Part shown: in pieces, positions 43,031-63,352 of the stretch | Layout of the letters: each line of letters opens with the position of its first letter | How positions within the stretch are numbered: the first letter of the stretch is position 1 | NCBI GenBank assembly: GCA_964229935.1 | Contig: CAXRGI010000293.1 | Span: 11,385-75,384 of the forward strand | Source: Opitutales bacterium | GTDB taxonomy: Bacteria > Verrucomicrobiota > Verrucomicrobiia > Opitutales > Opitutaceae | Reading direction: 5' to 3' | DNA: 64,000 bases | Program-made: the position numbers and the translations under genes | Notes under the pieces: model-generated | The model's database searches: none | What the model was told of the DNA's origin: nothing | The model's input: only the letters and a program-made list of their open reading frames with translations

Positions 43031-44137
43031 TCAGGGCAGCAGATACACCTCGACGAGGGCCACGCCCGTCGTGCTGCCGGCCCCGGCAACCCGGCAGGTG
43101 TAGGCGCCCGGCTCGAGGGTGAGAACGAGCGCGCTGTCCCGGCTGCCGGCGGCCAGCGCGAACGCACCCGTCTCGACCCCGGCGGTGGCGATCGCCGCAC
43201 CGTTCGCCTGTTCCTGCCAGTTGTCGTTCGTCGCGATGGCGCTTGAACCGCGGAAGACGGTGAGCACGGGGTCCGCGAGCGTCCCGGCGACGCCGAAGGC
43301 GGCCAACCCCGGCCCCACCGCGCGAACCAGCACACGGCGCGGGGCGGCGCCGCTGATGACGAGACCGGGGATGAGCACATTGTCCCCCGACCCCACGAAC
43401 GCGCGCGTGGAAAGGTTGGCCAGCTGGCCCGCGGCGCTTCCCGACGCCGGCGCCGCGCCTGCAAGGATCTCCACCGGCAACTGGCTCACATCGAGATCCG
43501 GCGCGGTGTTCCATCGCTTAACCCATCCGGGTGGCGCCGCGACCGTGGTCCGAAGAACCACGGTGTTGTCGAGGTCGAGATCCGACGTCCAGATGAACTT
43601 CGCCCCGGTGAAAGCCTCGGCCGCGTAGTCGCCGTCCGGCCGGACCCGTTCGGCGGTGTACTCCGTGGCCCGTTCCCAGCCGCTGTCGTCAAACCCCGGC
43701 AGGTGCCAGCCGGCCGGGAGAGCGGCGCGCTCGACGGTGGGGCGATTGACGTCACGGTTGGCCGGGGCGCGGAAGAAGCATTTCGCCTTCCAGGAGCCAC
43801 TGGTCACCGTGCCGTCGCCCAGCCGCAGGATGAAGCCGGCGTCGCCGATGCGATTCCCGTACTCAAGACCCCCGGAGGGGGTAGCGTTGTCCTTGGCCAG
43901 CACCGCGATCGTCAGCGGGTACTCCGGCAGGATCCGCACGGAAATCTGATTGTGCGGGATGAAGTCGATCGCGTCGACGGCGACCAGCTTGCCGTTGACG
44001 AAAATCGCGCACCAGTTGTCCGCGAAGGCATTGAGCGTGATGGTGTCGGCGATCACCGGCTTCACCTGCGCGGGCAAGGTACCAGCGGTGGCCGCCAGCA
44101 AAGCGAGCCACGGGAAAATCGGCGGGGGCGATCTCAC
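43031..44137 (-). CDS. secreted protein: unnamed 'ADNW' domain + one LxNxSxR repeat domain
   Basis: Signal peptide; N-terminal part is a close paralog of 62564-63292 (ADNW..NGKLVAVD..DFIPHN..PEYP.TIAV.AKDNA..IGD.GF..FDDSGWE.ATEY..FIWT.DLDLDN); C-terminal LANLSTR...ALVEVY. Confidence 0.85.
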   Translation of the reverse strand: MRSPPPIFPWLALLAATAGTLPAQVKPVIADTITLNAFADNWCAIFVNGKLVAVDAIDFIPHNQISVRILPEYPLTIAVLAKDNATPSGGLEYGNRIGDAGFILRLGDGTVTSGSWKAKCFFRAPANRDVNRPTVERAALPAGWHLPGFDDSGWERATEYTAERVRPDGDYAAEAFTGAKFIWTSDLDLDNTVVLRTTVAAPPGWVKRWNTAPDLDVSQLPVEILAGAAPASGSAAGQLANLSTRAFVGSGDNVLIPGLVISGAAPRRVLVRAVGPGLAAFGVAGTLADPVLTVFRGSSAIATNDNWQEQANGAAIATAGVETGAFALAAGSRDSALVLTLEPGAYTCRVAGAGSTTGVALVEVYLLP

Positions 44138-44772
44138 GCCGCGGCTCTCCCCGGGACCGGCGGCACTCCCTCGTGGGCCGCGCGCACGCTCACACGCAGG
44201 ACCAGGCGCAGGCGATGGATTCGCACCTTGAGCGCGTTCAGGCTGACGCCCTCGCGGGCGGCGATGGCGCCGTAACTTTCACCATCGATCAACTGGCGCA
44301 CGACGCGGCGCTCGCGCGGGCCGAACTGCCGGAGGGCAACCTCGAGCGCCTCGAGGATCTCGCGGTGCCGGGCGGGCTGCCGGTCGTCCGGGAGGGAGAC
44401 CAGCGTGGCCTCGTCCGCCGTGCCCACGGGCCGGCAACGCGCGCGCCGCAAGTGGTCGAGCGCGGAGTTGCGGGCGAGCGTGAACAGCCACGTCTCGAAC
44501 CGCTCGGGCTCACGCAGCCCGCGGATGCGTCGCACCATCTTGATCCAGACCGCCTGCAGGAGGTCCTCGACCTCGTGCGAGTGAGGGACACGGGGTCGCA
44601 GGAATCCCGCGACGCGGACGCGGTAGCGCCGGATGAGTTCGGCCTGCGCCGCGGCCTCGCCCAGACGGGCGCGCCGTACCAGAGCGAGGAGTTCGTGGTC
44701 GGGCTCCGGCGCGGGCGAAACCGCGGAAGCCGCGAACGGGCTGTTTCCCAATCCTTTGGCCAGGGTGTACAT
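44134..44772 (-). CDS. ECF RNA polymerase sigma factor
   Basis: Region 2 EDLLQ.VWIK...FETWLFTLARN..LDHLRR; region 4 SYGAIA...LKVRIHRLR. Confidence 0.85.
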   Translation of the reverse strand: MYTLAKGLGNSPFAASAVSPAPEPDHELLALVRRARLGEAAAQAELIRRYRVRVAGFLRPRVPHSHEVEDLLQAVWIKMVRRIRGLREPERFETWLFTLARNSALDHLRRARCRPVGTADEATLVSLPDDRQPARHREILEALEVALRQFGPRERRVVRQLIDGESYGAIAAREGVSLNALKVRIHRLRLVLRVSVRAAHEGVPPVPGRAAA

Positions 44773-44774
44773 GT

Positions 44775-47700
44775 TCAGGGCACGTCGTAGAGTTCCAGCA
44801 GAGCCACCCCGGTGGAGCCGCCGACGCCGCTCACTTGGGCGGTGTAGGCTCCGGGTTCGAAGATCATCAGCACGGCGGCGTCCTTGGAGTTGGCGCCGAG
44901 CGCGAAGGAGCCGGCCTGCGCGGCGGCCGCGGCCACCGCCGCCCCGCCGCCGGACGCGTTCCAATCATCGTTCTGCTGGAGTGGAACCGTCCCGCCCTGC
45001 CGGTAGATCGCGAGCTGCGGATCCGCCAGGGCACCCGCCACTCCGAGCGCCGTCAGGGCGGGGCCCACGCCGCGGATCAGGAGCCTTTTGGGCTCCGGCC
45101 CGGAGACCACGAAGCCCGCGATCAGCACCTCGGCGCCAGTTCCGGCCCGGGTCCGCGCCGACAAATTCAGCAGCGGGGCCGCCCCGGCCACCGGCGCCAC
45201 ATCGTACGCCTCGATCAGCGCCACGCCCGTGGCGCCTTTCCCGGTGAGTTGCACGGTGTAGGCACCCGCCGCCGGCTGGACCAGCAGCGCCGCATCCCGG
45301 CTGCCCGCCGGGAGCGCGAAAGCTCCGGCCTGCGCGGCGACCGCCGGCAATCGCGCGCCGTCCACCCCGGTGCTCCAGTCATCGTTGGCACCCTGGGAGC
45401 CGCCGCCGGCCCGGAAGAGCGTGAGCACCGGATCGGCGAGGACGCCGCCCACCCCGAAGGCTCCCAGCGTGGGCCCGATGCCGCGCACCAGCAGCGACGG
45501 CGCCGTTCCCGGGCCGACATAGAAGCCGACGATCAGCGTCTCACTATCGGCGCCGGACACCGAACGGACGGAAATATTGGCGAGGCGGGCGGAGCCGAGC
45601 GTCAGCACGGCGTTGGCGGAGGTCGCCGTACCGGCGGCGTTCGTCACCGCCAGAGTATAGGTTCCCGCGTCGCCGGACTTCACGGCGGACAGCGTCAGGG
45701 CGGCGTTGGTGGCCCCGGAAATCGCCGTCCCGTTGCGGCGCCATTGATAAGTGAGCGGACCATCGCCGGAGGCCGCCGCGCCGAGGGTGACATTCGTGCC
45801 CGCGGTCGCGGTCTGAAACGGCCGGGGCTGCTCGGTGATCACCGGGAGGGATGCGCGGGGGACGGAGCGCACCGCGAAAACCGGATAGGACGAAGTCATC
45901 AGCTCGTAACTGACGATCCCCTGCGCCCCACGCGGCGGGCCGGCGGCGGCGGGCACGCTGTTGTTGACCCCGAGCTCGAGGAGCCACGCGCTGGACGGCG
46001 TGCCGTTCGACCGCAGCACCGTCGAGGACCAATAGGCGGTGGCGGGCGTGGAGGCCGGAGGGAACAGCACCCGGTTCACGCTTGCCTGCGCGTTGTTGGC
46101 GGTCGTCGCCGACGCCAGGGTGTAGTCGGTCAAGGTCTGCAGCTCCTTGATGTTGGGCAGGCGCCAGTCGGAATAGCCGGCGAACACGAGGTTCTCGACG
46201 TGCGCGAGCGCGGCCGACCAGGTCATCGCGGAAGCCGGCACCTGGGTCCACATCAGGCCGGTGTCGGCGTCGGTGATCGTGCCATCGAGGTTATTGACGT
46301 AGTGGTGGGCGTTGGACGCCGGCGCGCCGCGCACGAAACGGGCGTGGTAGCGGAAGCGGCCGCCGGCCGAGAGGGTCTCGCCCTTGGGCTTCGGTCCCAG
46401 GCCACCGCCGGAGTTCACGCTCCAGACGCGGGCCGCGTCGGCGCCGTAGATGTCGCTGGTCCACCAGTACTCGGCGGCCCCGGCGGGATTCACTGGAAAA
46501 AACGCGGTGTTCATCGCGGCCGGATTGCCGTTGTTGAAGTTCATCAGGCTGAACAGCTCGGCGGGCGTGGGCAGACGCCAGTCGCTGTAGCCTCCCGTGC
46601 CGACGGCGGAGGCCCGCACCGCGGCGGCGTCCCACGTCATTTCCCCGGCGTCGACCTTCTGCCACATGAGCCCGGTGACGAGATCGGTGACGGTCCCGTC
46701 GCCATTGTCCCGGTACGAGGGGGCGTTGATCGTGTAATCCGAGTCCTCGCCGAACGCCGGTGTCGCGTCGAGGGTCTGGCCCGTGTCGGGCAGGCGGGCG
46801 AGGCCGGGGCTGGCCACCGGGTAGGCCGTGAGCCGGTTGTTTCCGCTGTTGTAGGTGGTGGTGGTTGGGCTAATGCCGGGCCGGCGCCAGGTGATCGTGA
46901 GCGTCTTGGGATTGGGGGTGCGGTTGATGCGCCAGCAGAGGTCGTAGGTCACGCCCGCGACCGTGTAGCGCATCAAGTATTCGTCGGGTGAAGGCGTGCC
47001 CGTCGCCGACTCGACCAGGTTGCCGGCCGCGTCGGCCTCGAGGGCCACCGGATTCCGGAAGCCGGTGATGCGGGCCCCGGTGATCGCCTGGGCGACGTAT
47101 CCCCCCGTGTTGTTCTGCCGGATGGCCTGCACGGTCGGCTGCCCGTCGACCTGGCCGCCGAAATTGATCACGTTGCCGCGGAACGCTGCGGGCAGATACG
47201 GGTTCTGCGGGCCGGTCGCCGCGCTGCCGATCGCGTGGTAGTGGTACTGCCACGGGCCGTGCTCGTGGCCGCCGTTGGCGTCCAGCGCCTGGCGGGGCGA
47301 TCCGTCGGGCTCGGTGTATCCGTATATAGGATAGCCGTCGAGCGCCCAGGCGACCGGCTTGTCGATGCCCAGCCGCGCCTGGAGATGCACGGGCGCTATA
47401 TGGTAGTGATAGTCGTCCGCGAGGCCGCAGTGCCCGCCGTAGAGGTCGAGTTCCCCGATCTCGTAAGAGAATACCCCGCGGTTGTTGCGCGGGTTGAAGA
47501 CGGCGATCCCGTCCGCGGCCACCGCGATGGCGCCCCGCTGGAAGTTTCCGGCCGAGATGGGGATGGGCGAGGCGGCGGGTGTCGGCACGAGCGGCAGGCG
47601 CCAGACGTTGGGCTTGCCGAAGCCGATCGAGCCCTGGTCGCGCTCGGGGTTCGTGGTCCCGGCGAAGTACGAGACCGGCAGGGGAACCTGCTGCTGCCAC

Positions 47701-48071
47701 GAGGTGATGCCCACCATCGGGGTGGGCATGAGCGCGGGGTCCGGCATGCCGTCACCCTCCACATAGAAGGTGGTGGCGTCGTAGTAGGCGCGCACGTGCG
47801 GCTTGAAGGGCGCGAAGGAAGCGGCCATCACCGCGCCGTAGCCGGCGGGCGCGACCGGGGAGGCGGCGGTGGAAACCTCGCCCGCGGAGGCGGCCGGCGC
47901 CAGCGCGGCCCGCTGCTCCGCGATCAGCTGCGCCATGAGCTCGGCGCGGGCGGCGGCCACGGCCGGACTCACCGGGGCCGGGTCATGCCACGAATGCGCG
48001 CCCAGCCGCGCGGTGGCCAGGAGCAGGCACGCGGCGGCGGTCGTGCGGGCGTTGATCCTAGGGGACTTCAT
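44775..48071 (-). CDS. large secreted protein: YHYH domain + 2x DUF1566 + Ig-like + 2x LxNxSxR repeat
   Basis: GGHCG..DDYHYH, ALDGYPIYG, YHYHA; LPDTGQ..GEDSDY, DNGDGTVTD.VTGLMW..DWRLP twice; TYQWRRNG...DAGTY; LANISVR and LLNLSAR. Confidence 0.88.
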   Translation of the reverse strand: MKSPRINARTTAAACLLLATARLGAHSWHDPAPVSPAVAAARAELMAQLIAEQRAALAPAASAGEVSTAASPVAPAGYGAVMAASFAPFKPHVRAYYDATTFYVEGDGMPDPALMPTPMVGITSWQQQVPLPVSYFAGTTNPERDQGSIGFGKPNVWRLPLVPTPAASPIPISAGNFQRGAIAVAADGIAVFNPRNNRGVFSYEIGELDLYGGHCGLADDYHYHIAPVHLQARLGIDKPVAWALDGYPIYGYTEPDGSPRQALDANGGHEHGPWQYHYHAIGSAATGPQNPYLPAAFRGNVINFGGQVDGQPTVQAIRQNNTGGYVAQAITGARITGFRNPVALEADAAGNLVESATGTPSPDEYLMRYTVAGVTYDLCWRINRTPNPKTLTITWRRPGISPTTTTYNSGNNRLTAYPVASPGLARLPDTGQTLDATPAFGEDSDYTINAPSYRDNGDGTVTDLVTGLMWQKVDAGEMTWDAAAVRASAVGTGGYSDWRLPTPAELFSLMNFNNGNPAAMNTAFFPVNPAGAAEYWWTSDIYGADAARVWSVNSGGGLGPKPKGETLSAGGRFRYHARFVRGAPASNAHHYVNNLDGTITDADTGLMWTQVPASAMTWSAALAHVENLVFAGYSDWRLPNIKELQTLTDYTLASATTANNAQASVNRVLFPPASTPATAYWSSTVLRSNGTPSSAWLLELGVNNSVPAAAGPPRGAQGIVSYELMTSSYPVFAVRSVPRASLPVITEQPRPFQTATAGTNVTLGAAASGDGPLTYQWRRNGTAISGATNAALTLSAVKSGDAGTYTLAVTNAAGTATSANAVLTLGSARLANISVRSVSGADSETLIVGFYVGPGTAPSLLVRGIGPTLGAFGVGGVLADPVLTLFRAGGGSQGANDDWSTGVDGARLPAVAAQAGAFALPAGSRDAALLVQPAAGAYTVQLTGKGATGVALIEAYDVAPVAGAAPLLNLSARTRAGTGAEVLIAGFVVSGPEPKRLLIRGVGPALTALGVAGALADPQLAIYRQGGTVPLQQNDDWNASGGGAAVAAAAAQAGSFALGANSKDAAVLMIFEPGAYTAQVSGVGGSTGVALLELYDVP

Positions 48072-50559
48072 AGATCTCGATCAGCGCCACGCCGGTGGAG
48101 TTACCCACGCCGCTGACCTGCGCGGTGTAGGCACCCGGCTCCAGCGTGACGAGCAGCGCGGCGTCCCGCGAATTGGGCGCCAGCGAGAAGGCTCCCACCT
48201 GCCCGGCCGCGAGGCCCACCTGCGGGGCGTTGGTCGCGGTGAGCCAGTTGTCGTTCTGGGCCATCGCCGAGGCGGAACCCTGACGGTAGAGGGAAAGCTG
48301 CGGATCGGCCAGCACACCGCCGACCCCGAACTGGGCGAGCGCCGGGCCGACTCCGCGGATGAGCACGCGCTTGGTGACGTTGCCGGCGACCACAAAACCC
48401 GCGATGAGTATGTCTCCCCCGGTGCCGACCTGCGAACGCGCGGAGATGTTGACCAACCGCGCGGTGTCCGCGGCCGCGGCGTTGTCGTAGGCCTCCATCA
48501 GGGCGATGCCGGTGGCCGCCGCCTTGCCCGTGATCTGCGCGGTGTACGGGCCGGGGGCGAGCGGCGTGAGCAACGCGGCGTCACGGGCGTTCGCCGTCAG
48601 GGCGAATGCCCCCGAACGCGCGGCCGCGGCGGAAATCTGCGTTGCGTTGGCGGCGGATCCCCAGTCGTCGTTGGCGGCAACCGCCGCGCCCGTCCCGGTC
48701 GTGAGGGTAAGCACCGGGTCGGCAAGCGCGCCGGTCACCCCGAATCCCGTCAGCGCGGGTCCGATTCCGCGAACGAGCAGCGGCAACGGCTGGCCCGGGC
48801 CGACCACGAAGCCGGCGATCAGGGTGCGGTCGCCGGTGCCGGCGCCGGAGCGGACGGAAAGGTTCACCAACCGGCTCGCCCCCAGCTCCAAGGAGACGGT
48901 GGTGGAGAGAACCGAACCCGCGGAGGTGGAGACGAGCACGGAGTAGGATCCCGCGTCGGCGGCCCTCATGCCGGGGATGGAGTGCTGGGCGGCGGTGGCG
49001 CCGGCGATGGCGACGCCGTCGCGGCGCCATTGGTAGGAGATCGGCAGCGTGCTGACCGCGGAAACCGAGAAGGTCGCCGTGGCGCCCGCGGCCACCGCGA
49101 GGTTGACCGGTTGCTGGGTGATCGTCGGTGCGGGCTGGGCCTCGACCATCGACCCGATGGTGTAGGTGTAGGAGACCATGCCGTTTTTGCGCTCCGCCGT
49201 CTCGTCGGCCGGGAGGAAGGCGCGCACATAGTCAACCTTCACCCCGGTGGGCGCGACGGTGACGCGGGCGTAACCCGAGTTCGGGACGCGATCGCCGGTC
49301 AGATAGGCGTCGGAGTTGAAGAGTGAGTAGTTCGGATCGGCCGGATTCGGCATCGCCTGATAGATCACACCATCGAGTTGCTGCCGGACCCAGATGTGGT
49401 CGTGCGCGCCGAAAAAGATGGTGACCTTGTTGTCGACGAAGAGCTGGTGGATGGTCTTGGGCCAGGTAGGCCGGCGGGCCGAGAAGCCCGGAGTGCCGTT
49501 CGCGTTGAGGCCGCCCCATTCGTAGCGGGTCGCCGGCTCGATGCCTCCGCGCCCGGTGCCCATGACGTGATGGGCGAACACGAACTTGAAGCGGGCCCGG
49601 CTGCCCTCGAGCGTCCGCTTCAGCCACTGGTACTGCGCTTCGCCGTGGGTCACGAGCCACGGGTCCGAGGTCTTCGGACCGCCGTAGAAATCGTTGTCGG
49701 CCACGACCGGCGAACCCCAGTAGGGGTCGATGCACACGAAAAGCGCGTCACCCCACGTCCACGCGAAGTAGTTCCGCAGGAGACCGATGTGCTCGATGAG
49801 CTCCGGATTGCCGCTGTAGAAGGCGTCGGGGGCGGGCTGCGGATAGAGGGAGTTGCGCGCGTTCTGCGCCCAGACGGCGACGTTGTTGGGCGTGCCGTCG
49901 AGCAGGTAGCGGGCGGCCTGCTCGTGGTTCCCGTTGACGAGGAAGACGGGGGTCGTGCGGCCGAGGATCCCAAGGTAGGGACGCTGGATCAGGTAGCGCT
50001 CGACGACCTGCGGCTGCGTGACGGCGCGCGGGTTCGCCTGGTTGATGGTGTCGACGCTGAAATCGTCGCCCAGCATCACGAAAAAATCCGCCGTGGCGCC
50101 CGCGACGTTCTGCATCGCCCTGGTGTAGAGGGCCGCATCGAACATCTGCCGCGCGCGCTCGGGATGGGAATCGCCCTGCACGCCGAAAACGAACGAGGCG
50201 CCCGGCGGACGGGCGGTCATGAACGAGAACTCGGAGCCGGCGTCGTAGCCGGCCGCCGCCGGGGCCTTGAATCGAATCCGGTAGAAATGGCGGGTGCCCG
50301 CCGCGAGCCCCTTCAGCTCGATCTCGCGCGGCTGGTTGGCGGGCAGGTCGACCGCCGCCGACTGCGCGTCGTACACCCCGGGGCGCGTCCCGTACTCCAG
50401 GTAGAGGGAGACGGCCGAGGGAGAGATGACATTGGCGGCCATCAGCGTGTCGGTCGGCCTTCCCAGCACGAGCGTGCCGGGAAACTCGGCCGAAGAGGCC
50501 CGTCCGGCGAGGAGAAGGCCGGCGAGGAGCGACGTCAGGCAGCGGAGCGCGCGGTTCAT
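48058..50559 (-). CDS. secreted calcineurin-like metallophosphoesterase + Ig-like + 2x LxNxSxR repeat
   Basis: LGRPT FN3-like N-domain; GDSH, LGDDF, GNHE, AHH, AHDH; SYQWRRDG; start set at MNRALR so that the regulatory box lies upstream. Confidence 0.87.
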   Translation of the reverse strand: MNRALRCLTSLLAGLLLAGRASSAEFPGTLVLGRPTDTLMAANVISPSAVSLYLEYGTRPGVYDAQSAAVDLPANQPREIELKGLAAGTRHFYRIRFKAPAAAGYDAGSEFSFMTARPPGASFVFGVQGDSHPERARQMFDAALYTRAMQNVAGATADFFVMLGDDFSVDTINQANPRAVTQPQVVERYLIQRPYLGILGRTTPVFLVNGNHEQAARYLLDGTPNNVAVWAQNARNSLYPQPAPDAFYSGNPELIEHIGLLRNYFAWTWGDALFVCIDPYWGSPVVADNDFYGGPKTSDPWLVTHGEAQYQWLKRTLEGSRARFKFVFAHHVMGTGRGGIEPATRYEWGGLNANGTPGFSARRPTWPKTIHQLFVDNKVTIFFGAHDHIWVRQQLDGVIYQAMPNPADPNYSLFNSDAYLTGDRVPNSGYARVTVAPTGVKVDYVRAFLPADETAERKNGMVSYTYTIGSMVEAQPAPTITQQPVNLAVAAGATATFSVSAVSTLPISYQWRRDGVAIAGATAAQHSIPGMRAADAGSYSVLVSTSAGSVLSTTVSLELGASRLVNLSVRSGAGTGDRTLIAGFVVGPGQPLPLLVRGIGPALTGFGVTGALADPVLTLTTGTGAAVAANDDWGSAANATQISAAAARSGAFALTANARDAALLTPLAPGPYTAQITGKAAATGIALMEAYDNAAAADTARLVNISARSQVGTGGDILIAGFVVAGNVTKRVLIRGVGPALAQFGVGGVLADPQLSLYRQGSASAMAQNDNWLTATNAPQVGLAAGQVGAFSLAPNSRDAALLVTLEPGAYTAQVSGVGNSTGVALIEIYEVP

Positions 50560-55163: not shown

Positions 55164-56189
55164 TCACCGGGGCTCACCCCGTCGCGCGCCACCCGCCTTG
55201 CCCGACTCCCCTCCCCGGCGGCGGGCGAGTCCGGGATCAACGGGCGGTTTATCACGCGCACCAGCCACCGCGGTTCCGCCGCGCACCGCCCGCACCAGGA
55301 GCCGCTCGCCCTTCAAGGCATGCGTCGCGATGCCGGTGGCAAAGGAGACCTGCCATGCGCGCTCGGGGCGGTTATTCTCGCTGGTGGCAGACCAATGGGC
55401 CCCGGGAGCCGCGTCGGGAAACCACTCCGGAGACAACGGCCGCGATGCTCCGTCATCGCAAAGCGAGCGCAGTTCCTTGATGTTCGGCAGCCGCCATTCC
55501 CCGCTCCCGCCCAGATTCAGGCGCGCGCAGTAGGCCAGCGCTTCCTCCCAAGTCATAGCCTCGGCGGGCGCCTCGCGCTGCCAGACCAACCCCGTCGCCT
55601 CGTCCGCGACTGTCCCCGGCGCCCCCGCGCGCAGACGGGGACCCTCGGCTGGCGCCGCGCCACGCACGCAGAGCGCATGGAATCGCTTCGCGCCGCCCGC
55701 GCTGATCGTCTCGCGCACCGGATGGGGACCGATTCCTCCTCCGGCGTTGGCCACCCAGACGCGGGATTCGTCCCCGGCGCGGTTCGTGGCTGACCACCAG
55801 TACTCCGCCGCGGTGCGAGTGAAACCCGCGGGATCGAGGGCCGGCCGGCTTCGCCCGTGATTGAGCACCGCGAACAACTCCTGGCTTGTGGGCAACCGCC
55901 AGTCCGCGTGGCCGGCCAGCCGTAGGTCGCGCGCATGGGCCCGCGCCGCTTCCCAGGTCATCTCCCCGCCGTCGCTCCGCTGCCACATGAGTCCGGTGAT
56001 CTCGTCGGTCACGGTGCCGTCGCCGTTGTCCCGCATTCGGGGTCCCGCGCCCGCGAAGTCGGAATCCTCGCCGAATGTCCGCGTATGGCGGGCGGTCTGC
56101 CCGGTATCGGGCAGCGGGCCGCCGGAAACAGTCGCGACGGCAAGGAGCAGGAGCCAGATGGAACCATTGGTCCGGAGTCGTGGTTTCAC
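55164..56189 (-). CDS. secreted 2x DUF1566 (Lcl C-terminal-like) protein
   Basis: Signal peptide; LPDTGQ..FGEDSD, DNGDGTVTD.ITGLMW..DWRLP, D.ATGLVW..EWRLPNIKEL. Confidence 0.88.
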   Translation of the reverse strand: MKPRLRTNGSIWLLLLAVATVSGGPLPDTGQTARHTRTFGEDSDFAGAGPRMRDNGDGTVTDEITGLMWQRSDGGEMTWEAARAHARDLRLAGHADWRLPTSQELFAVLNHGRSRPALDPAGFTRTAAEYWWSATNRAGDESRVWVANAGGGIGPHPVRETISAGGAKRFHALCVRGAAPAEGPRLRAGAPGTVADEATGLVWQREAPAEAMTWEEALAYCARLNLGGSGEWRLPNIKELRSLCDDGASRPLSPEWFPDAAPGAHWSATSENNRPERAWQVSFATGIATHALKGERLLVRAVRGGTAVAGARDKPPVDPGLARRRGGESGKAGGARRGEPR

Positions 56190-56234: not shown

Positions 56235-56250
56235 GTTAAAATCCTTTCAT
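56235..56250 (-). promoter_or_regulatory. response-regulator-type box 3
   Basis: Transcribed strand ATGAAAGGATTTTAAC, 19 nt, then TCAT (56215-56212). Confidence 0.75.
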
Positions 56251-56272: not shown

Positions 56273-56288
56273 ATTAACATCTTTTAAT
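56273..56288 (+). promoter_or_regulatory. response-regulator-type box 4, upstream of the regulator gene
   Basis: ATTAACATCTTTTAAT, followed by TTGCGC-N16-GCTCAT before the GTG start. Confidence 0.7.
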
Positions 56289-56333: not shown

Positions 56334-57029
56334 GTGAAGATCCTGGTGCTCGAGGACGACCGGAAGCTGGCGGCGCTGGTCCGCAAAGGGCTCGAGGCGC
56401 AGGGCTTCGCGGTGGACTTCTGCCACCATGGCGACGACGCCTTCGCGCTCGCGTCGACCCGCTCCTACGACGCGCTGGTGCTGGACATCATGGTCCCGGG
56501 CCGGGACGGGCTCAGCATCCTGCGGAACCTGCGGGACCGCCGGATCGCCGTGCCCGTGGTGCTCGTCACCGCCCGCAGCGCGCTCAACGAGCGCCTGGAG
56601 GGCCTGAACCTCGGCGCCGACGATTACCTCACGAAGCCGTTCTATGTGGACGAGCTGATCGCGCGGCTCCACGCCGTCGCCCGGCGCGCCGCCGGCAACG
56701 CGCTCACGCTCCTCCAGAACGGCGCCGTCACCGTGAATCTCATCACCCGCGAGGTCCTGCGTTCGGGCAAGCCCGTGGAGCTCACCGCCCGCGAGTTCTC
56801 CCTGCTCACCTACCTGATGCGGTCGCCGGGCCAGACCTTCACCCGGGCGCAGATCTGCGAGCATGTCTGGAACTATCACTTCGATCCGGGCACCAATCTG
56901 GTGGATGTCTACGTGCAGCGTCTCCGGCGGAAACTCCAGGACGGGGAGGAAAATCCGCTGATCGGAACGGTGCGCGGCGTGGGCTACCGCGCGCGCGCCC
57001 TTCCCTCCTCTCCCCGCGCCGGAGCATGA
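56334..57029 (+). CDS. OmpR-family response regulator (CusR/CzcR-like)
   Basis: ILVLEDD, LDIMVPGRDG, GADDYLTKPF, LTAREFSLL, VW.YHFDPGTNLVDVYV.RLR.K, TVRGVGY. Confidence 0.93.
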   Translation: MKILVLEDDRKLAALVRKGLEAQGFAVDFCHHGDDAFALASTRSYDALVLDIMVPGRDGLSILRNLRDRRIAVPVVLVTARSALNERLEGLNLGADDYLTKPFYVDELIARLHAVARRAAGNALTLLQNGAVTVNLITREVLRSGKPVELTAREFSLLTYLMRSPGQTFTRAQICEHVWNYHFDPGTNLVDVYVQRLRRKLQDGEENPLIGTVRGVGYRARALPSSPRAGA

Positions 57030-58483
57030 CCTCTTTCCGCGTCAGGCTGGCCCTCCTGGTCGGCCTCTCCACCGCCGCGCTGCTCCTGGCAGCCGCCTTC
57101 CTCGCCTGGAACCTCACCTCGGACCTCAACCTCGAGCGGCTGGACCGCAGCCTGCAGCAAATCGCGCGCGCCAACCTCGGGCGGGTGGCGGACGGCAGTC
57201 ACTGGGGCCGTCTGGACGCCGCGTTCGGCGTCGTCTCGGGCCGCGACAGCACGCCCGCCTACGTGGTCTGGGTGCGGAACAACGACCGCGTGGTCTACCG
57301 TTCGACCGGTTGGCCGGCGGAACTGCGGGCGGAGGACTTTGCCGCGGCCGAAACGTACGAGGGCGGGCGCGTCATCACCGACCCGCCGCCACCGCCGCGC
57401 AAAACGGGCCTCTCCGCCAGCAATCCCCCACTGCCGGTGCGGGATCCCCGGCTACTGACCGTCGCCGCGGGCACCGGAAGCTGGCGGGTCCTCGTCACGG
57501 GCAATCCGTACACGCGGTTGGTGCTGGCCGCCAATCTTGACGAGGCCAACGAGGACCTGCTGCGGCTTCGCCAACGCTTTCTGGCCGTGCTCCCGCTCAT
57601 CCTCCTCGTGGTCGGGTTGGCGGCGTGGTGGCTCGCGACCCGCGCCCTCGGCCCGGTGACCGCCCTGACCCGCGCCGCCGAGGGGATCACCGCCCAGGGA
57701 CTCAGCCAGCGCATCTCCGCCCCCGCCCACGACCGGGAATTCGAGCGGCTTGTGACCGTCTTCAACGGGATGCTCGACCGCCTCGAGCAATCGTTCCACC
57801 AGGCCCGGCGTTTCAGCGCCGACGCCTCGCACGAGCTCAAAACGCCGCTCGCCCTGCTGCAGGCCGAGCTGGAGCAGGCGCTCCACGCCGCCCCCTCCGG
57901 TTCCCCGCAGCAGCAGCTTTGCTCCAGTCTCCTCGAGGAGATCCACCGCCTGAAGGCCATCCTCGAGAAACTGCTGCTCCTGTCCCTTGCCGACAGCGGC
58001 CGCCTCTCCCTGGAGCGCGCCGACGTCGATCTCGCCGCCGTGATCCGGGACGTGCTGGAGGACGGCGCCGCGCTCGCACCCACCCTCCGCATCGAGCCGG
58101 AAATCCCCGAACACCTCGACGTCCCGGCCGACCGGGTTCTCGTGGAGCAGGCGCTCCACAACCTCGTGGGCAACGCGGTGAAGTACAACCGGGCCGGTGG
58201 TGTGGTGCGGGTGGCGCTGGCCCGCCGGGGGGACGTCGCGGAACTGCGGGTGGGCAACACGGGGCCCGGGCTGGGTGACACCGAACGCCAGCGGCTGTTC
58301 GAGCGGTTTTACCGCGGGGACCCCGCGCGCACCCGTGGCCGCGCCGGCGGCACCGGCCTGGGACTGAGCCTCTCCCGCGAGATCCTGCGCGCCCACGGCG
58401 GCGACCTCGTGCTCGGGCGCACCGAAACCGATTTCACGGAATTCGTCGCCACTCTGCCCGCGGCCGCGCCCCGGAGCAGCTGA
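57026..58483 (+). CDS. sensor histidine kinase (two TM, HAMP, HisKA, HATPase; CusS/CzcS-like)
   Basis: FNGMLDRLE.SF..ARRFSADASHELKTPL, NLVGNAVKY, NTGPG, GTGLGLS. Confidence 0.93.
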   Translation: MTSFRVRLALLVGLSTAALLLAAAFLAWNLTSDLNLERLDRSLQQIARANLGRVADGSHWGRLDAAFGVVSGRDSTPAYVVWVRNNDRVVYRSTGWPAELRAEDFAAAETYEGGRVITDPPPPPRKTGLSASNPPLPVRDPRLLTVAAGTGSWRVLVTGNPYTRLVLAANLDEANEDLLRLRQRFLAVLPLILLVVGLAAWWLATRALGPVTALTRAAEGITAQGLSQRISAPAHDREFERLVTVFNGMLDRLEQSFHQARRFSADASHELKTPLALLQAELEQALHAAPSGSPQQQLCSSLLEEIHRLKAILEKLLLLSLADSGRLSLERADVDLAAVIRDVLEDGAALAPTLRIEPEIPEHLDVPADRVLVEQALHNLVGNAVKYNRAGGVVRVALARRGDVAELRVGNTGPGLGDTERQRLFERFYRGDPARTRGRAGGTGLGLSLSREILRAHGGDLVLGRTETDFTEFVATLPAAAPRSS

Positions 58484-58496
58484 GGCTCCGCGCGGC

Positions 58497-59999
58497 TCAG
58501 CGACCCCGGACCTCGTAACGGTGGGTTACGGCGCCGGTGCGGCGCGTGGCGTTTTCCGCGGAGTCGGGATACGCCCGCACGTACTCGACCACCGCGCGTT
58601 CAGGGTCCACCGCGACGCGGAGGATACCCGACGCGCCCTGCTTCACGCCGCTCTTGTAGCCGTACTCCTCGAGGCTGCGGATGTTGTCGAAACGCTGGTG
58701 CCCGGGCTGCGGCACAAGCTGATAGATGATGCCGTCACGCTCCTGCTGCACGTAGAGGTGGTCGTGACCGTGGAAGACAATCGCGGGTCCCCGGCGCACG
58801 AGCAGGTCGTGGATCGGCGCCTCCCAACCCGGGCGCTTCTGGGCGAACGTGTTCCGGCCGTCGAGTTCACGGCCGCCCCACTCGAAGAAAAACGACGCCT
58901 CGGAGCCGCCGCGGCCCTCGGGGGTCTCCCCGCCCACCAGATGGTGCAGGAAAACGAAGGTGTGGCGCGCGCGGCTCGTCGCGAGCGTGCGCCGCAGCCA
59001 CTCGTACTGCTCCCGGCCGAGCGTCCGGTTCCAGTTGTCGCCCCGCCCGCCGCCCCCGCGCTCGCCGCGCGAGGAGTACCAGTACGGGTCCAGTGCGATG
59101 AAGAGGGCGTCGCCCCACTCCCAGGCGTAGTAATTCTGCAGCAGGCCCAGTTCCGGGTGCGCGGTGCCGTTGCCGGTGTAGAAGGCGTCCGGCACCGGAT
59201 TGGGAAAATACCGCTTCCGCATCCCGTTCGACCATGCGGCCATCGAATCGGGGCCGGAACCGCCGCGCGCGGGCTGCTCGCCGTCGTGGTTGCCGAGCAC
59301 GAGGAACACCGGCGCGCTGTGCCCCACGAGGCTGAAGTAGTGGCGCTGCGCAAGATACTGGGGCGCGGCGTCCGTGAACTTCAGATACTTGTCCACCATG
59401 AACGTGTCGCCGAGGTCGACGTGGAAATCCGTCCGCGCCGCGAGCGCGTTGGCGAGCGACTTGCGGTACACCGCGGGATCCGTGCCAAAATCGAGGTGCG
59501 GATCGGCCTGCACGGTGAAGGTGAACGCCGCCCCCGCCGGACGCGCCGTGTGAAAGCTGCGCTCCGGCGTGCGCTCGAATTCACCGGATCCCCCACTCCG
59601 CGAGCGGAACTCGTAAAACACGCGGGCGTTGGCCGGCAGGCCGGTAAGAGCCACCTCCACCGGCTCCCCCGCCGCGAAACGCCGCGGCGGCGTGATCTTG
59701 GCCAGCTGTCCCGGGGCAAAACCGTACGCCACCTGCCCCTCCCGCGCCTGATAGCAGAGCACGCTGAGCACCGCGGAATCGCGGGTCGGACGGCCGAGGA
59801 TCAGGTCGTACTCCAGCGCCGGAACTTCCGTGCGGAAGGCGGGCGTGGGCATCCTGGCCTCGCCGCGGCCCTGACCGCCTCCGCCACCACCGCCTCCCTT
59901 GCGGCCACCATCGGCCCGCGGCTCACCGGCGCACAATGCCGCGGCGACCGTCAACCCCAACACCCACGCCAGCCGGGGACACTTCGTGACAACGTTCAT
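58497..59999 (-). CDS. secreted calcineurin-like metallophosphoesterase (free form)
   Basis: Signal peptide; ILGRPT; ADPH, LGDTF, GNHD, LHH, GHDH; paralog of 48058 and 52461. Confidence 0.88.
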   Translation of the reverse strand: MNVVTKCPRLAWVLGLTVAAALCAGEPRADGGRKGGGGGGGGQGRGEARMPTPAFRTEVPALEYDLILGRPTRDSAVLSVLCYQAREGQVAYGFAPGQLAKITPPRRFAAGEPVEVALTGLPANARVFYEFRSRSGGSGEFERTPERSFHTARPAGAAFTFTVQADPHLDFGTDPAVYRKSLANALAARTDFHVDLGDTFMVDKYLKFTDAAPQYLAQRHYFSLVGHSAPVFLVLGNHDGEQPARGGSGPDSMAAWSNGMRKRYFPNPVPDAFYTGNGTAHPELGLLQNYYAWEWGDALFIALDPYWYSSRGERGGGGRGDNWNRTLGREQYEWLRRTLATSRARHTFVFLHHLVGGETPEGRGGSEASFFFEWGGRELDGRNTFAQKRPGWEAPIHDLLVRRGPAIVFHGHDHLYVQQERDGIIYQLVPQPGHQRFDNIRSLEEYGYKSGVKQGASGILRVAVDPERAVVEYVRAYPDSAENATRRTGAVTHRYEVRGR

Positions 60000-61441
60000 C
60001 GCTGTTTTCCTCCTCCGCCCCCGCCGCCTTTGCCGCCACCCTTGCCTCCCCGACGCTCGCCGCCTTCGCGCGGATCGTTCGGATCGGACGCCTTGGCCGG
60101 ATCATAATCGGGATTCGGCCGCGCCATCTGCGCGCTCACCTCCTTGAGATAAGCGTCGAGCCGCGCCCCGAGTTCCGCCGCTTTCTCCGGCATGCTTCCG
60201 GCCAGATTCCGCGATTCTCCGGGATCCTTCTCCAGCTCGAATAGACGCGTCTGCTTCGTCTCGTAATTGCGGATGAGTTTGTAGCCGCCGAGCAGGATGG
60301 CCGTGGCGGGACCGCCGTTCCCGAGATCGTAGTGCGGAAAGTGGAAAACCAGCTCCTCCCGCGTGCGCCGCACCGCCCCGCGGCCGGCGGGATCCCGCAG
60401 CACCGCCACGAGGCTGCCGCCCTCCACCCCCGCCGGCAGCGGCGTCTTCGCGCCCGCGAGCTCCGCGATCGTCGGCAGGATATCGCAGGCCGTCGCCGGC
60501 ACCCGGGAGCAGACGTCGCCCGCGATGCCGGGACCGCTGATGAGAAACGGCACGCGCAAACCGCCCTCGAGCACCGAGCCCTTGCCGCCCGAAAGGGGCG
60601 CATTGTTCGTGCGGCCCTGCCCTCCGTGGTCGGCCGTGTAGAAGATGTACGTCGATCCCGTCAGCCCGAGCCGTTCGATGCCGTCGAGCAGCAGGCCGAA
60701 GGTCTTGTCGATCTCATCGGCGTCGGCCGTGGCGGAATCGCGCCCGGGCCGCGCACCTTCCTTCCGCTCCTGGTTGGGATAATGCGAGAGCTGCAGGTAG
60801 AACGGTTTCCCGGCGGCCTTGGCCTTCGCCATGAACGCGATGCCGCGCTCGGTCATGCCGAAGGCCTGCTTCGGATTGGGGCTGGCGACGTTGTCGGGAC
60901 CGCCATTCGAGGTCGCGCCGTCGCTCGCGTCGAAACCATGCCGCGCCGGATCGGTCCGCCCGACGTGCCACTTGCCGAAATGGGCCGTGGTGTAGCCGTT
61001 CTCCTTCAGCAACTCGGCGACCGTGAGTTCCCCCGTCGGCATCTCCAGCAACGGCTCCGGCGGAATGAGCGCGGTCCGCGGCGTGCCGCCGTCGCGTCCG
61101 GCACCCACGTAGGTCATGCGCAGCGCGGCCGGACCCCGGCCGGTGAACAGGGCCGCGCGCGAAGGGGTGCACCGCGGGGACAGCGCGTAGCCGTAGGTGA
61201 AGCGCATCCCGCTCCGCGCCAGCCGCTCCAGCGCCGGCGTGCTGAAGACCCGGCTGCGCGAGGCCGGCACCCGGTCGTCCATCTGCACCGAGGTCTGCGC
61301 CCAACCCTGGGCCTCGGCCATCAACACCACGAAATTCGGCGGCGCCGCGTCGGCGGCTCGCATCGCGCCGGTCGAGCTACCCGCTAGCACGAGCGATGTG
61401 AGCACCGCCCGTCCGAACCGTCTCCTGGTCATGATCATCAT
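59996..61441 (-). CDS. sulfatase-family protein, possible Tat substrate
   Basis: TRRRF signal; CTPSRAALFTG; GKWH; ADHG; first metal motif reads AEAQGW instead of DDxGW. Confidence 0.85.
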   Translation of the reverse strand: MMIMTRRRFGRAVLTSLVLAGSSTGAMRAADAAPPNFVVLMAEAQGWAQTSVQMDDRVPASRSRVFSTPALERLARSGMRFTYGYALSPRCTPSRAALFTGRGPAALRMTYVGAGRDGGTPRTALIPPEPLLEMPTGELTVAELLKENGYTTAHFGKWHVGRTDPARHGFDASDGATSNGGPDNVASPNPKQAFGMTERGIAFMAKAKAAGKPFYLQLSHYPNQERKEGARPGRDSATADADEIDKTFGLLLDGIERLGLTGSTYIFYTADHGGQGRTNNAPLSGGKGSVLEGGLRVPFLISGPGIAGDVCSRVPATACDILPTIAELAGAKTPLPAGVEGGSLVAVLRDPAGRGAVRRTREELVFHFPHYDLGNGGPATAILLGGYKLIRNYETKQTRLFELEKDPGESRNLAGSMPEKAAELGARLDAYLKEVSAQMARPNPDYDPAKASDPNDPREGGERRGGKGGGKGGGGGGGKQR

Positions 61442-61443
61442 GG

Positions 61444-62553
61444 TTATTCCTCCTCACGCTTCTTCTTGCCGTCCTTGCCCTTGCCGCCCCCGCCGCCGCG
61501 GCGGTCGCCGGCGCGGTACGTTTCCTCGCGCACGGTGCCGTCGGTCGCCGTGAACCGGAACTTCCAGACCCCTTCGCCGACCTGCTCATAGTCGATGGCG
61601 CCCGCACTGCCGCGGACGTCGTACTGGAGCGCATAGGACTTTTCCGGCGTGATCGTTTTGAAGCCCGTGATCTTCGCGCCGCGCAGCACCTGGAGCGCTT
61701 CGCGCACGCCCTGCGCCCGCGGCTGCGGGTCGACCTGCTCCTCGCGCTCGGTCACGACGCCGCGGAAGCCGCCGTTCAGATAAGGGTACTTCGCCGTGGC
61801 GTGGTAGTGGTAGCCGATCGGCGCGTGATCGTGCCCGTTCCAGCGGTCCAGACCCTTGGGCTCGGAATCATCCGCCTCGGTGAGACCGTGGATCGGATAG
61901 CCGTCGAGCGCGTACGCCACCGGCAGCGCCTTGCCCAGCACCGCCTGCAGGTGCAGCGGCGCGACGTGGTAATGGTAATCATCGGCCCGGCCGCAATGCC
62001 CGCCCCACTGGTCGAGTTCGCCGATCTCCTGCGAGACCGCGCCGCGGTTGTTCTGCGGGTTGAAAATCGGGATGCCGTTCGCCGCGAGGGCGATCGCTCC
62101 GCGCAGGAAGCGGTCGCGGATGGTCACGCCACCGTCCGGCGCCGGCACCGGACGCAGCGGGATGCGCCACGCGTTGGCGCCGCGGTACGGCTGCGGCAGC
62201 GGCACCTGCTGCTGCCATGCGGTGATCCCCACCATCATGTTGTGCGCGGGAAGGCCGTTAGACTCGACATACAGGAAGTCGGAGTCGGCTCGCACCCGCA
62301 CCACCGGGGCGAACCTGCCAAACGCGGCGGCCGCGGACGGCAGATCGGCCGACGGGGAGGCTGCGCCCAGTTGCGCCAGCAACGGCGGCAGGTACAAGGA
62401 GACCTGCTCGGGACGGAACTCGCGCGCGACGCGGCGGTCGATCGCGTCGTGGGCGCCGTCACCGGTCAGGTGCGCGAAGGAAGCGGTGGAGGCGCCGGCG
62501 AGGAAAGCGACCGCACGTGAGGCGCGGCAGAGGCGGTGGAAAGTGGTCTTCAT
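61444..62553 (-). CDS. secreted YHYH-domain protein (free form)
   Basis: MVGITAWQQQVPLP, GAIALAANGIPIFNP.NNRG, GGHCGRADDYHYH, ALDGYPIHG, YHYHA. Confidence 0.88.
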   Translation of the reverse strand: MKTTFHRLCRASRAVAFLAGASTASFAHLTGDGAHDAIDRRVAREFRPEQVSLYLPPLLAQLGAASPSADLPSAAAAFGRFAPVVRVRADSDFLYVESNGLPAHNMMVGITAWQQQVPLPQPYRGANAWRIPLRPVPAPDGGVTIRDRFLRGAIALAANGIPIFNPQNNRGAVSQEIGELDQWGGHCGRADDYHYHVAPLHLQAVLGKALPVAYALDGYPIHGLTEADDSEPKGLDRWNGHDHAPIGYHYHATAKYPYLNGGFRGVVTEREEQVDPQPRAQGVREALQVLRGAKITGFKTITPEKSYALQYDVRGSAGAIDYEQVGEGVWKFRFTATDGTVREETYRAGDRRGGGGGKGKDGKKKREEE

Positions 62554-62563
62554 GGCGTTGTCC

Positions 62564-63292
62564 TCAGCGCGCCGGAGCGCCCGTCACATCGAGATCCGGC
62601 TTGGTGTTCCAGCGCGGCTTCCAGCCGGGTTTCTCGACGCGGGTGCGGAAGATCACGGTGTTGTCGAGGTCGAGATCGCCGGTCCAGATGAACTTCGCTC
62701 CCTGGAAGTCGGCTTTGTAGAACGGCTCCTTCGGGTTCACGCGCTCCTCGGTGTACTCGGTGGCGCGCTCCCAGCCGGAGTCATCGAAGTCGACCGCAAA
62801 CCAGTCGGCCGGGATCGGCGTGTGCTCGACCTTCGGGTTCGCGGGGTCGCGGTTCAAGGGGCCGCGGAAAAACGACTTCGCCTTCCAGCTGGCGTTGGTG
62901 ACGGTGCCGTCGCCGAACTTCAGGGCAAAGCCGCCGTCGCCGATGCTCGATCCGTACTCGGTGCCCGTGCGGGGGTCGGCGTTGTCCTTGGCCATCACTG
63001 CGATCGTCATCGGGTATTCCGGCAGGATATCGACCGACACCACATTGTGGGGGATGAAGTCGATCGGATCCACGGCCACCAGCCGGCCGTTGATGTACAG
63101 CATGAACCAGTTGTCGGCGTAGATGTTCGCCCGGACCGTGTCGGCCAGGGTCGGTTTCACCACTCCGGGAGTCCCGCCCCCCTTTCCTTTTCCCCGGCCT
63201 TTGCCGGCGGGGGCCTGGGCGGACTCGGCTCCCGCGCAAACGGCGGCCACGACCAGTCCGAGCAGAAACGCGCGCACGAAACCGGACTTCAT
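62564..63292 (-). CDS. secreted protein with the unnamed 'ADNW' domain (free form)
   Basis: Signal peptide and GK-rich linker; paralog of the N-terminal domain of 43031-44137. Confidence 0.85.
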   Translation of the reverse strand: MKSGFVRAFLLGLVVAAVCAGAESAQAPAGKGRGKGKGGGTPGVVKPTLADTVRANIYADNWFMLYINGRLVAVDPIDFIPHNVVSVDILPEYPMTIAVMAKDNADPRTGTEYGSSIGDGGFALKFGDGTVTNASWKAKSFFRGPLNRDPANPKVEHTPIPADWFAVDFDDSGWERATEYTEERVNPKEPFYKADFQGAKFIWTGDLDLDNTVIFRTRVEKPGWKPRWNTKPDLDVTGAPAR

Positions 63293-63336
63293 GACCCACG
63301 AAACCACGGGCACATGACGCCACGGCGCTGGCGCGG

Positions 63337-63352
63337 ATTAAAAATTATTCAT
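63337..63352 (-). promoter_or_regulatory. response-regulator-type box 5
   Basis: Transcribed strand ATGAATAATTTTTAAT, 19 nt, then TCAT (63317-63314). Confidence 0.78.

Follow-up and report, generated by a model that had tools for sequence, protein, structure and literature searches.

Does the block of 13 genes that lies between yhcG and der in an Opitutales bacterium (GenBank assembly GCA_964229935.1, contig CAXRGI010000293.1) work as one system, and what would such a system do outside the cell? We analyzed the block (43031-63352) within a 64-kb stretch of DNA, hereafter the window, which is part of an 80.7-kb contig in a 4.3-Mb assembly that is 86% complete. At about 70% G+C spurious open reading frames (ORFs) are abundant, and frames were picked by third-position G+C together with Pfam and NCBIfam matches. 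The exported set consists of two YHYH proteins, two proteins of an unnamed family referred to here as ADNW, three metallophosphoesterases, one sulfatase, one DUF1566 protein, and one Kelch protein; the remaining genes encode a response regulator, a sensor kinase, and an extracytoplasmic function (ECF) sigma factor. Sequence comparison strongly supports the view that these genes form a single regulon whose operator is conserved.

The evidence starts from the box ATGAA-N6-TTMAT, which has three exact sites in the window (50613, 55118, and 63337) and two with one mismatch (56235 and 56273). By chance, 0.02 exact sites would be expected in the window, no shuffle reached four, and the rest of the 4.3-Mb assembly contains no exact match to the pattern. 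In a weight-matrix scan of the genome, the five sites took the top five places with 24-30 bits, against 22.4 bits for the next one; as the matrix had been built partly from these same sites, the scan is supportive rather than independent. The original prediction, made from the letters of this DNA, had all the genes share one upstream box, and this is true of each of the five units (operons) but not of each gene. The spacing is regular. At the four promoters that drive exported proteins, TCAT stands exactly 19 nucleotides (nt) after the box on the transcribed strand. Three units have 44 nt between box and start codon; the regulator unit has 45 nt and unit E 53 nt. The box upstream of the regulator gene (56273..56288) suggests autoregulation.

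For comparison with other genomes, we took the best 80 ADNW loci out of 415 related stretches from a genome-collection scan and searched them by tblastn with the window proteins; these loci, many of them truncated, are drawn from Verrucomicrobiota, Planctomycetota, and Armatimonadota and span 1.26 Mb. Eighteen of their 19 strict box sites fall within ten loci, those with a regulator that shares 66% identity or more with that of the block. Loci with a different two-component system have no strict box, and among the loci without a regulator match L042 alone has one. In the orthologous loci, TAAT, TAAC, or TCAT stands 19 nt after the box and the start codon follows 21-23 nt later. Since the box goes with the orthologous regulator and its spacing is kept in relatives, it is very probably the operator of the block's response regulator, and we conclude that the promoter geometry is under selection. 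The proposal of a co-regulated exported set with its own two-component system and ECF sigma factor was thus borne out by the kept box geometry and by the confinement of 18 of the 19 strict sites to loci with the orthologous regulator.

On the regulator side the geometry is not the same as at the promoters of the structural genes. Exactly 10 nt past the box, the orthologous loci L018, L019, L021, L024, and L048 have TTGAC, and the window has TTGCG (56289-56330). We discarded a reading of the box as an ECF promoter: its GAAC stands about 29 nt from the downstream element, which we infer to be too far for a -35/-10 pair. A sigma-70 consensus scan found no promoter, and terminator-like sites were fewer than in shuffled sequence. 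Elsewhere in the same genome, contig C105 (L097:470-4926) carries, on one strand, genes for a ceramidase-like protein (PF04734, N-terminal part), an FGGY kinase, and a sulfatase. A box-like site, ATGAACATAAATTAAC (19.2 bits), stands 37 nt before the start of the ceramidase-like gene; it has neither the element at 19 nt nor the 44-nt spacing, and we place it outside the regulon. A further site, C349:11908, falls within the last part of a coding frame and appears to be a chance match.

The 13 genes were grouped into five transcription units on the basis of their tight junctions, which within units are 4-nt overlaps or gaps of 2-15 nt (Table 1). Ten secreted proteins and an ECF sigma factor on the minus strand, with a regulator-kinase pair on the plus strand, had been anticipated for this block, and Pfam and NCBIfam matches together with leaders read by eye confirmed this content: all ten non-regulatory products have a signal-peptide-like N-terminus as judged by eye. 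The predicted placement between yhcG and der likewise agreed with the families of the flanking genes. At 67-72%, the G+C content of the block is inside the range of the remaining window (63-72%).

Table 1. Boxes, transcription units, genes, and flanks of the block, in window coordinates.
Feature	Position	Strand	Description
Box A	63337..63352	-	ATGAATAATTTTTAAT; heads unit A; 44 nt ahead of ATG at 63292
Regulator-gene box	56273..56288	+	ATTAACATCTTTTAAT; 45 nt ahead of GTG
DUF1566-gene box	56235..56250	-	ATGAAAGGATTTTAAC; 44 nt ahead of GTG
Box D	55118..55133	-	ATGAACAACTTTTAAT; heads MP870 and Kelch; 44 nt ahead of GTG
Box E	50613..50628	-	ATGAACGAAATTTCAT; perfect palindrome; heads unit E; 53 nt ahead of ATG at 50559
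Unit A		-	ADNW_a, YHYH_s, sulfatase, MP500
Unit B		+	regulator, kinase
Unit C		-	DUF1566
Unit D		-	MP870, Kelch
Unit E		-	MP850, YHYH_L, ECF sigma, ADNW_b
yhcG flank	41882-42985	+	PF06250 and PF17761
ADNW_b	43031..44137	-	368 aa; signal peptide, ADNW domain, one 130-aa module
ECF sigma	44134..44772	-	212 aa; begins 2 nt past YHYH_L stop
YHYH_L	44775..48071	-	1098 aa; signal peptide then His (LGA/HSWHD, cleavage at the slash), YHYH, two Lcl_C, Ig, two 130-aa modules
MP850	48058..50559	-	833 aa; purple-acid-phosphatase (PAP)-like metallophosphoesterase, Ig domain, two 130-aa modules
Kelch protein	50646..52445	-	599 aa; two N-terminal 130-aa modules, six-blade Kelch propeller
MP870	52461..55073	-	two N-terminal 130-aa modules, then PAP-like metallophosphoesterase
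DUF1566 protein	55164..56189	-	341 aa; secreted, two Lcl_C/DUF1566 domains
Response regulator	56334..57029	+	231 aa; OmpR/PhoB family, GTG start
Sensor histidine kinase	57026..58483	+	485 aa; two transmembrane segments, ~155-aa periplasmic domain, HAMP, HisKA, HATPase; start overlaps regulator stop by 4 nt
MP500	58497..59999	-	500 aa; PAP-like metallophosphoesterase
Sulfatase	59996..61441	-	481 aa; formylglycine-type S1, CTPSR motif, RRRF leader
YHYH_s	61444..62553	-	369 aa; PF14240; predicted mature N-terminus His (SFA/HLTGDGAHD, cleavage at the slash); Gly/Lys-rich tail
ADNW_a	62564..63292	-	242 aa; signal peptide, Gly/Lys-rich linker, ~200-aa beta-sandwich
der flank	63367 onward	-	KH_dom-like of EngA

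The families of the block travel together. Matches were found in 76-78 of the 80 related loci for YHYH, 66 for the sulfatase, 55-56 for the phosphoesterases, and 40-41 for the two-component system, with Kelch (16 of 80), DUF1566 (12 of 80), and the ECF sigma factor (5 of 80) far less frequent. Conservation strongly supports an evolutionary core, kept across phyla of the Planctomycetota-Verrucomicrobiota-Chlamydiota (PVC) group, that consists of ADNW, YHYH, the sulfatase, and a PAP-like phosphoesterase of about 490 residues. Regulators vary by lineage: some loci have the orthologous two-component system, others an unrelated one, and others again an ECF/anti-sigma pair. Gene neighborhoods were read on four long contigs. 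On an Opitutaceae chromosome, the regulator-kinase pair is divergent from genes for ADNW, two phosphoesterases, YHYH-Lcl_C, YHYH-PBP, and sulfatase. A Gemmataceae contig has ECF sigma, a 313-residue possible FecR-like anti-sigma factor (weak DUF4880 match), ADNW, YHYH-PBP, sulfatase, and Metallophos. The series ADNW, YHYH(-PBP), sulfatase, Metallophos thus follows an ECF sigma factor in a Gemmataceae genome, and it is also found in Opitutaceae genomes together with the orthologous two-component system. Another long contig holds nearly the whole set, embedded ECF sigma included. A Pfam census of 140 other neighboring ORFs in the related loci revealed no recurrent transporter or permease family; ceramidase-like proteins occurred five times, multicopper oxidases three times, and FGE twice. 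The original prediction had named a failure of the families to co-occur in other genomes, and a match to a characterized pathway, as grounds for giving it up. Because the families do co-occur, both among the 80 loci and on the long contigs, it stands on the first point, and in the literature that we searched the block matched no characterized pathway.

The nearest public relative is a metagenome-assembled genome of Opitutae from Lake Erken, with 95% identity in ADNW. Freshwater and river metagenomes from about ten studies contain DNA at least 95% identical to the block (window 43401-63400); one river-metagenome run spans that whole interval at about 15-20x, and two runs may be the samples of origin. 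In one metatranscriptome library, short contigs of at least 99% identity lie on nine structural genes, a weak hint that the block is expressed; these contigs leave 54.0-58.0 kb (the two-component system and DUF1566) uncovered, and contigs of this kind cannot show absence.

We then considered the exported enzymes; that the phosphoesterases and the sulfatase have their catalytic motifs intact is strongly supported. The three phosphoesterases score 30-34 bits against PF00149 (threshold 21.5). All five motifs (DxH, GD, GNH[DE], H, and GHxH) are present in MP500 and MP870, and MP850 has AHDH in the last. In a family-profile search the nearest solved relatives were purple acid phosphatases (E ~1e-6); the tyrosine typical of these enzymes (GDxxY) is absent, the corresponding motifs being GDTFM, GDIFM, and GDDFS. 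PhoD (PF09423) reached 23.8 and 24.2 bits, below its threshold of 27. The sulfatase scores 117.9 bits against PF00884, and its closest solved relative is 9FO1, named as a kappa-carrageenan sulfatase of S1_16 (E 1.3e-67); other carbohydrate sulfatases come next. Its leader, MMIMTRRRFGRAVL (window 61340-61441), has the look of a twin-arginine export motif; the nine others are Sec-like.

Three further kinds of parts accompany the enzymes. Lcl_C/DUF1566 (PF07603) is found above threshold in two stretches each of the DUF1566 protein (55164-56189; 186 bits) and YHYH_L (147 bits); a literature search on DUF1566 together with sulfatase gave only papers on diversity-generating retroelements. The Kelch protein is also above the cut-off for Pfam NANM. 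A module of about 130 residues (LANLSTR ... LVEVY), unnamed in Pfam, occurs in nine copies, one or two on each of five of the ten exported proteins (window 43034-54986). It is present at 68 places on 32 contigs of the genome, usually as tandem pairs and often after an Ig domain, and its Atlas neighbors include CHRD, peptidase M10, and cupredoxin proteins of Verrucomicrobiota; many unrelated secreted proteins of the phylum also carry it. Given this spread through the genome and over unrelated secreted proteins, the module looks like a general, phylum-wide surface or secretion appendage rather than a mark of the block. By comparison, the rest of the genome, beyond the window's contig, has no paralogues of ADNW, YHYH_s, or the catalytic phosphoesterase domains at E <1e-15, and PDB sequence searches with ADNW, YHYH, MP500, and MP870 returned nothing meaningful.

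ADNW has no Pfam or NCBIfam match. The domain of ADNW_b, whose gene overlaps the sigma gene by 4 nt, is 60% identical to ADNW_a. A search with ADNW_a retrieved 1,857 cluster representatives, the best 120 of which, with named Gemmataceae and Planctomycetota records among them, share 65-89% identity. Across 23 sequences, over 70 positions do not vary. The structure model of ADNW (predicted local distance difference test, pLDDT, 76) had no Foldseek match in the PDB at E 0.001 or better. VIA-align placed CBM67-containing rhamnosidases and a mushroom lectin at the top (Z 7.9, 7.1, and 6.9; 23-26% identity), led by 3W5N with Z 7.9, a root-mean-square deviation of 3.3 over 119 residues, and 24% identity. 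Language-model (Atlas) features pointed to PF08531 and PF21209 with scores of 0.81-0.87, and hhalign against 13 PF08531 domains from related genomes gave 85.6% probability (E 5.5e-06, 53 columns), the local match spanning the DGT..SWK..GP..W..FDD..W block. ADNW is therefore taken as a probable distant CBM67/Bac_rhamnosid_N-like beta-sandwich, an assignment that is new here.

More than 500 longer proteins, mostly of Verrucomicrobia, join ADNW with YHYH, EF-hand, and PEBP in various combinations; cultured carriers of the fused form include Prosthecobacter fluviatilis KACC 12649, P. debontii, and Brevifollis gellanilyticus. Atlas structure searches agree on these fusions and add YHYH with SHD1, type IX secretion system (T9SS) tails, TIG, dockerin, and DUF305/DUF4142 in other phyla. 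The adjacent ADNW_a and YHYH_s genes are a split form of this common fusion, which argues for a joint function, and the fusions strongly support a functional link between YHYH and ADNW. Complex prediction with the YHYH core and the ADNW domain scored 0.00, which counts neither for nor against binding. A Chthoniobacteraceae contig (L006/L039; JANNXQ010000107.1) encodes two giant fusions next to ADNW, a 2506-residue protein with YHYH, Lcl_C, ASH, and sulfatase domains and a 1926-residue protein that joins sulfatase to multicopper-oxidase domains; its phosphoesterase gene seems split (251 and 187 residues).

The two YHYH proteins match PF14240 with 38.4 and 36.2 bits (threshold 25), the matches covering the first 109-118 positions of a profile of 193. 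All of 35 homologues keep DDYHYH, and the invariant residues include H186, H194, H196, D191, D192, E179, and D181. In most of 83 homologues a histidine (His1) directly follows the predicted signal-peptide cleavage site: a crude pattern found it in 44 of 80 ORFs, the runner-up residue reaching 7, and reading by eye added most of the others. His1 is present in nearly all Verrucomicrobial and several Planctomycete homologues, often within HxxGDxxHD or HPGHDHG. An N-terminal histidine chelates transition metals in four other families (Franco Cairo et al. 2025, PMC12537917), a paper in which YHYH has no occurrence; a preprint predicted a three-His site in a PF14240 protein and called the family uncharacterized (bioRxiv 10.64898/2026.10.18.759936). 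Apart from that preprint and a diatom survey, which records YHYH in diatoms, the literature search on YHYH/PF14240 returned nothing. With these residues, metal binding by YHYH is plausible.

The model of YHYH_s has pLDDT >90 for residues 70-350. Residues 1-64 were modeled below pLDDT 50, and His1 is therefore not placed in the fold. Foldseek found no match in the PDB at E 0.001 or better, and VIA-align matched just a small C-terminal beta-meander (293-354), so that the core (70-290) was barely probed and we claim no new fold, only the lack of a solved match. All structural neighbors in the Atlas were YHYH clusters. The same genome has a third, canonical YHYH protein (PF14240, 226 bits) on contig C131 (L094:1503-5592), with a histidine after the signal peptide and a Gly/Lys tail. 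Its gene is divergent from a regulator-kinase pair of its own, followed by an ECF sigma gene whose product is 48% identical to that of the window, and no ATGAA-N6-TTMAT box lies between the YHYH gene and this pair.

What might these parts do together? The reading that we favor, tentatively and with somewhat less than even confidence, is a regulated system that clears anionic glycoconjugates outside the cell of their phosphate and sulfate esters. A periplasmic signal would be sensed by the kinase and the regulator would bind the box at five promoters, which would turn on the five units and with them the ten exported proteins, the regulator pair itself, and the embedded ECF sigma factor. An anionic glycoconjugate outside the cell would then lose its phosphate and sulfate esters to the three metallophosphoesterases, acting as active binuclear enzymes, and to the formylglycine sulfatase of carbohydrate type. 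Sugar- or ligand-binding modules would hold the substrate: ADNW (CBM67-like), DUF1566 (lectin-type), and the Kelch propeller. Cationic Gly/Lys tails or the 130-residue module could keep the proteins attached to the surface or the polymer. YHYH, with His1 and its His/Asp cluster, would be the metal-binding component, which might supply or hold the metal or be a catalyst itself. The outcome would be phosphate and sulfate freed for uptake, or an exposed glycan. The carbohydrate signals in this scheme, namely the S1_16-like sulfatase, the CBM67-like ADNW, the lectin-type DUF1566, and the NanM-like Kelch protein, had been missed by the original prediction, and they favor an anionic glycan substrate at least as strongly as metal precipitation. 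Its "extracellular machine" holds as a co-regulated exported set; "machine" itself, with its sense of a physical assembly, overstates the case.

Several points weigh against this proposal. All functional support is computational; the contigs from the RNA library cannot prove transcription of the block. The conserved core has no glycoside hydrolase, lyase, transporter, or binding-protein gene, which is odd for nutrient harvesting. The regulator scores 190 bits against the PhoB equivalog (cut-off 296.2), and a better match (243 bits, also below the cut-off) is found on contig C60 of the same genome; a second dedicated phosphate-harvesting system therefore needs a reason. The link between ADNW and CBM67 is distant, with Foldseek and Pfam blank. 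In many related loci the sulfatase is just 25-40% identical and hence not always of the same subfamily. Finally, the YHYH-DUF305/DUF4142 and sulfatase-multicopper-oxidase fusions seen elsewhere point to metal biology rather than to glycans.

These fusions bear on a serious rival, the reading of the original prediction: a metal-responsive surface system in which the kinase would sense a metal (such as Cu or Zn), YHYH would capture or sequester it at the surface, and phosphate released by the phosphoesterases would precipitate or buffer it, or in which a scarce metal would be acquired. Kinase and regulator do rank heavy-metal subfamilies first among NCBIfam families, but in the TIGR01386/TIGR01387 test the kinase scores 250 bits (curated cut-off 292.55) and the regulator 212 bits (curated cut-off 279.2). 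Across 17 orthologues the periplasmic domain of the kinase keeps one invariant histidine (H59), a PPPP..NPxLP stretch, and several Trp, Pro, and Arg residues, with no conserved Met or Cys, and the sensor domain alone matched no solved structure by sequence in a PDB search. No metal efflux, oxidase, or chaperone gene lies between yhcG and der, and neither the block nor the conserved core has an efflux pump, P-type ATPase, permease, or chaperone. With scores under the cut-offs, a sensor with a single invariant histidine, and no efflux or oxidase genes in the block, the "heavy-metal-type" sensing originally proposed is not supported.

What remains of the metal link lies in YHYH, where His1 in most homologues and the invariant His/Asp clusters support it in part and make metal binding plausible. 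The proven metal binding of N-terminal-His proteins in other families (PMC12537917) and the three-His site predicted for a PF14240 member speak for a metal role too, as do the YHYH-DUF305/DUF4142 fusions in Gemmatimonadota, the sulfatase-multicopper-oxidase fusion in a related locus, and Cu-oxidase domains in three of the 140 neighboring ORFs. Against these stand the same core driven by unrelated kinases or ECF/anti-sigma pairs in other lineages, and a carbohydrate-type sulfatase and lectin-like modules without an obvious part in metal precipitation. We consider a metal-responsive surface system rather unlikely; it stays a serious rival because of the YHYH features and some of the fusions in other phyla, and the kinase adds nothing to it.

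A more novel alternative, which also strikes us as doubtful, would make YHYH and ADNW the core of an undescribed extracellular metalloprotein system, either a new class of metal-dependent enzyme acting, alongside its sulfatase and phosphoesterase partners, on sulfated or phosphorylated glycans or a new means of surface metal capture. In freshwater and soil PVC bacteria such a system would answer to dedicated envelope sensors, and it would have relatives in Bacteroidota, Acidobacteriota, and Actinomycetota.

The ECF sigma factor raises a different possibility. It scores 80.4 bits against TIGR02937 (cut-off 42.9) and 61.2 bits against Sigma70_r2, with Sigma70_r4_2 at 23.1 bits just under its own cut-off, and no recognizable anti-sigma gene stands beside it in the block. 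Because its gene lies in a box-headed unit, the arrangement is a two-component-system-to-ECF cascade, and this cascade might sense damage or change at the cell's own surface, with the enzymes trimming phosphate and sulfate from the cell's own envelope polymers. An ECF sigma factor that lacks an anti-sigma partner and is placed under a two-component system resembles CseBC-SigE, the cationic Gly/Lys tails and the common Verrucomicrobial surface module suggest retention on the producer, and the core has no uptake genes. We nevertheless think envelope remodeling or stress quite improbable, since no envelope biosynthesis genes are linked and the 65-89% identity of ADNW across phyla with different envelopes better fits an external, shared substrate; to our knowledge, sulfated envelope polymers are not known in the phyla that carry the core, which also counts against it. 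That unrelated secreted-protein genes simply lie side by side, with the box a chance AT-rich motif, is very hard to believe: although five of the ten proteins carry the generic module found at 68 genome places and the accessory Kelch and DUF1566 genes occur in just 12-16 of the 80 loci, the idea is already contradicted by the box statistics and genome-wide exclusivity, by the covariation of the box with the orthologous regulator at kept spacing, and by conserved synteny and gene fusions.

YHYH and the unnamed ADNW family (>1,800 cluster representatives) are widespread secreted families without a known function, and they now have a defined context. The locus shows a two-component operator and the split YHYH/ADNW form, and it supplies partner enzymes, a tying fusion, an operator that can be read, and cultured species with the fused form, so that ordinary genetics and biochemistry can test its role. 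If the substrate is an anionic glycan, or the role that of metal capture, the answer would bear on the acquisition of phosphorus, sulfur, and trace metals by abundant freshwater PVC bacteria.

How does the block compare with known systems? Among N-terminal-His metalloproteins (lytic polysaccharide monooxygenases, CopC, DUF4198, DUF6702, and the Ang-1/Ang-2 "anglerases"), His1 is shared with most YHYH homologues, and the frequent metallophosphatase neighbors of Ang-2 (PMC12537917) recall the phosphoesterases of the block; the block, however, has no HupE/UreJ permease, and the YHYH core matched no solved fold. CBM67/Bac_rhamnosid_N, the Ca-dependent L-rhamnose module of Streptomyces avermitilis Rha78A (PDB 3W5N), is the best structural match of ADNW, which among the proteins seen stands alone or fused to YHYH or PEBP and never with a GH78 catalytic domain. 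CusRS/CopRS/CzcRS (TIGR01386, TIGR01387) have in common with the block an OmpR-family regulator, a HAMP-HisKA kinase whose periplasmic loop spans about 150 residues, and a 16-bp inverted or direct-repeat operator beside the promoter, with a box at the regulator gene itself. In place of the cus, cop, and czc efflux or oxidase genes, however, the block has esterases and binding proteins.

The Pho regulon (PhoB/PhoR; PhoD, PhoX, and purple-acid-like phosphatases) is similar in that a two-component system drives several exported phosphoesterases. Pho boxes consist of two half-sites about one helical turn apart that abut the promoter, and the ATGAA-N6-TTMAT box is alike. The block differs in having no pst or phoU genes, a kinase with a large periplasmic domain, PhoD scores below the cut-off, and a regulator that is not the best PhoB of the genome; we know of no sulfatase, YHYH, or lectin-like protein in a Pho regulon. 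Sulfatase polysaccharide utilization loci of marine and gut bacteria likewise combine a carbohydrate-type S1 sulfatase and binding-like modules with a dedicated envelope sensor, but the block has no glycoside hydrolase, lyase, SusCD, or TonB transporter, and phosphoesterases and YHYH dominate it. In CseBC-SigE of Streptomyces coelicolor, a two-component system activates an ECF sigma gene under envelope stress. The block shares with it an ECF sigma gene in a box-headed unit without a recognizable anti-sigma factor and differs in that its sigma gene is embedded among genes for secreted proteins.

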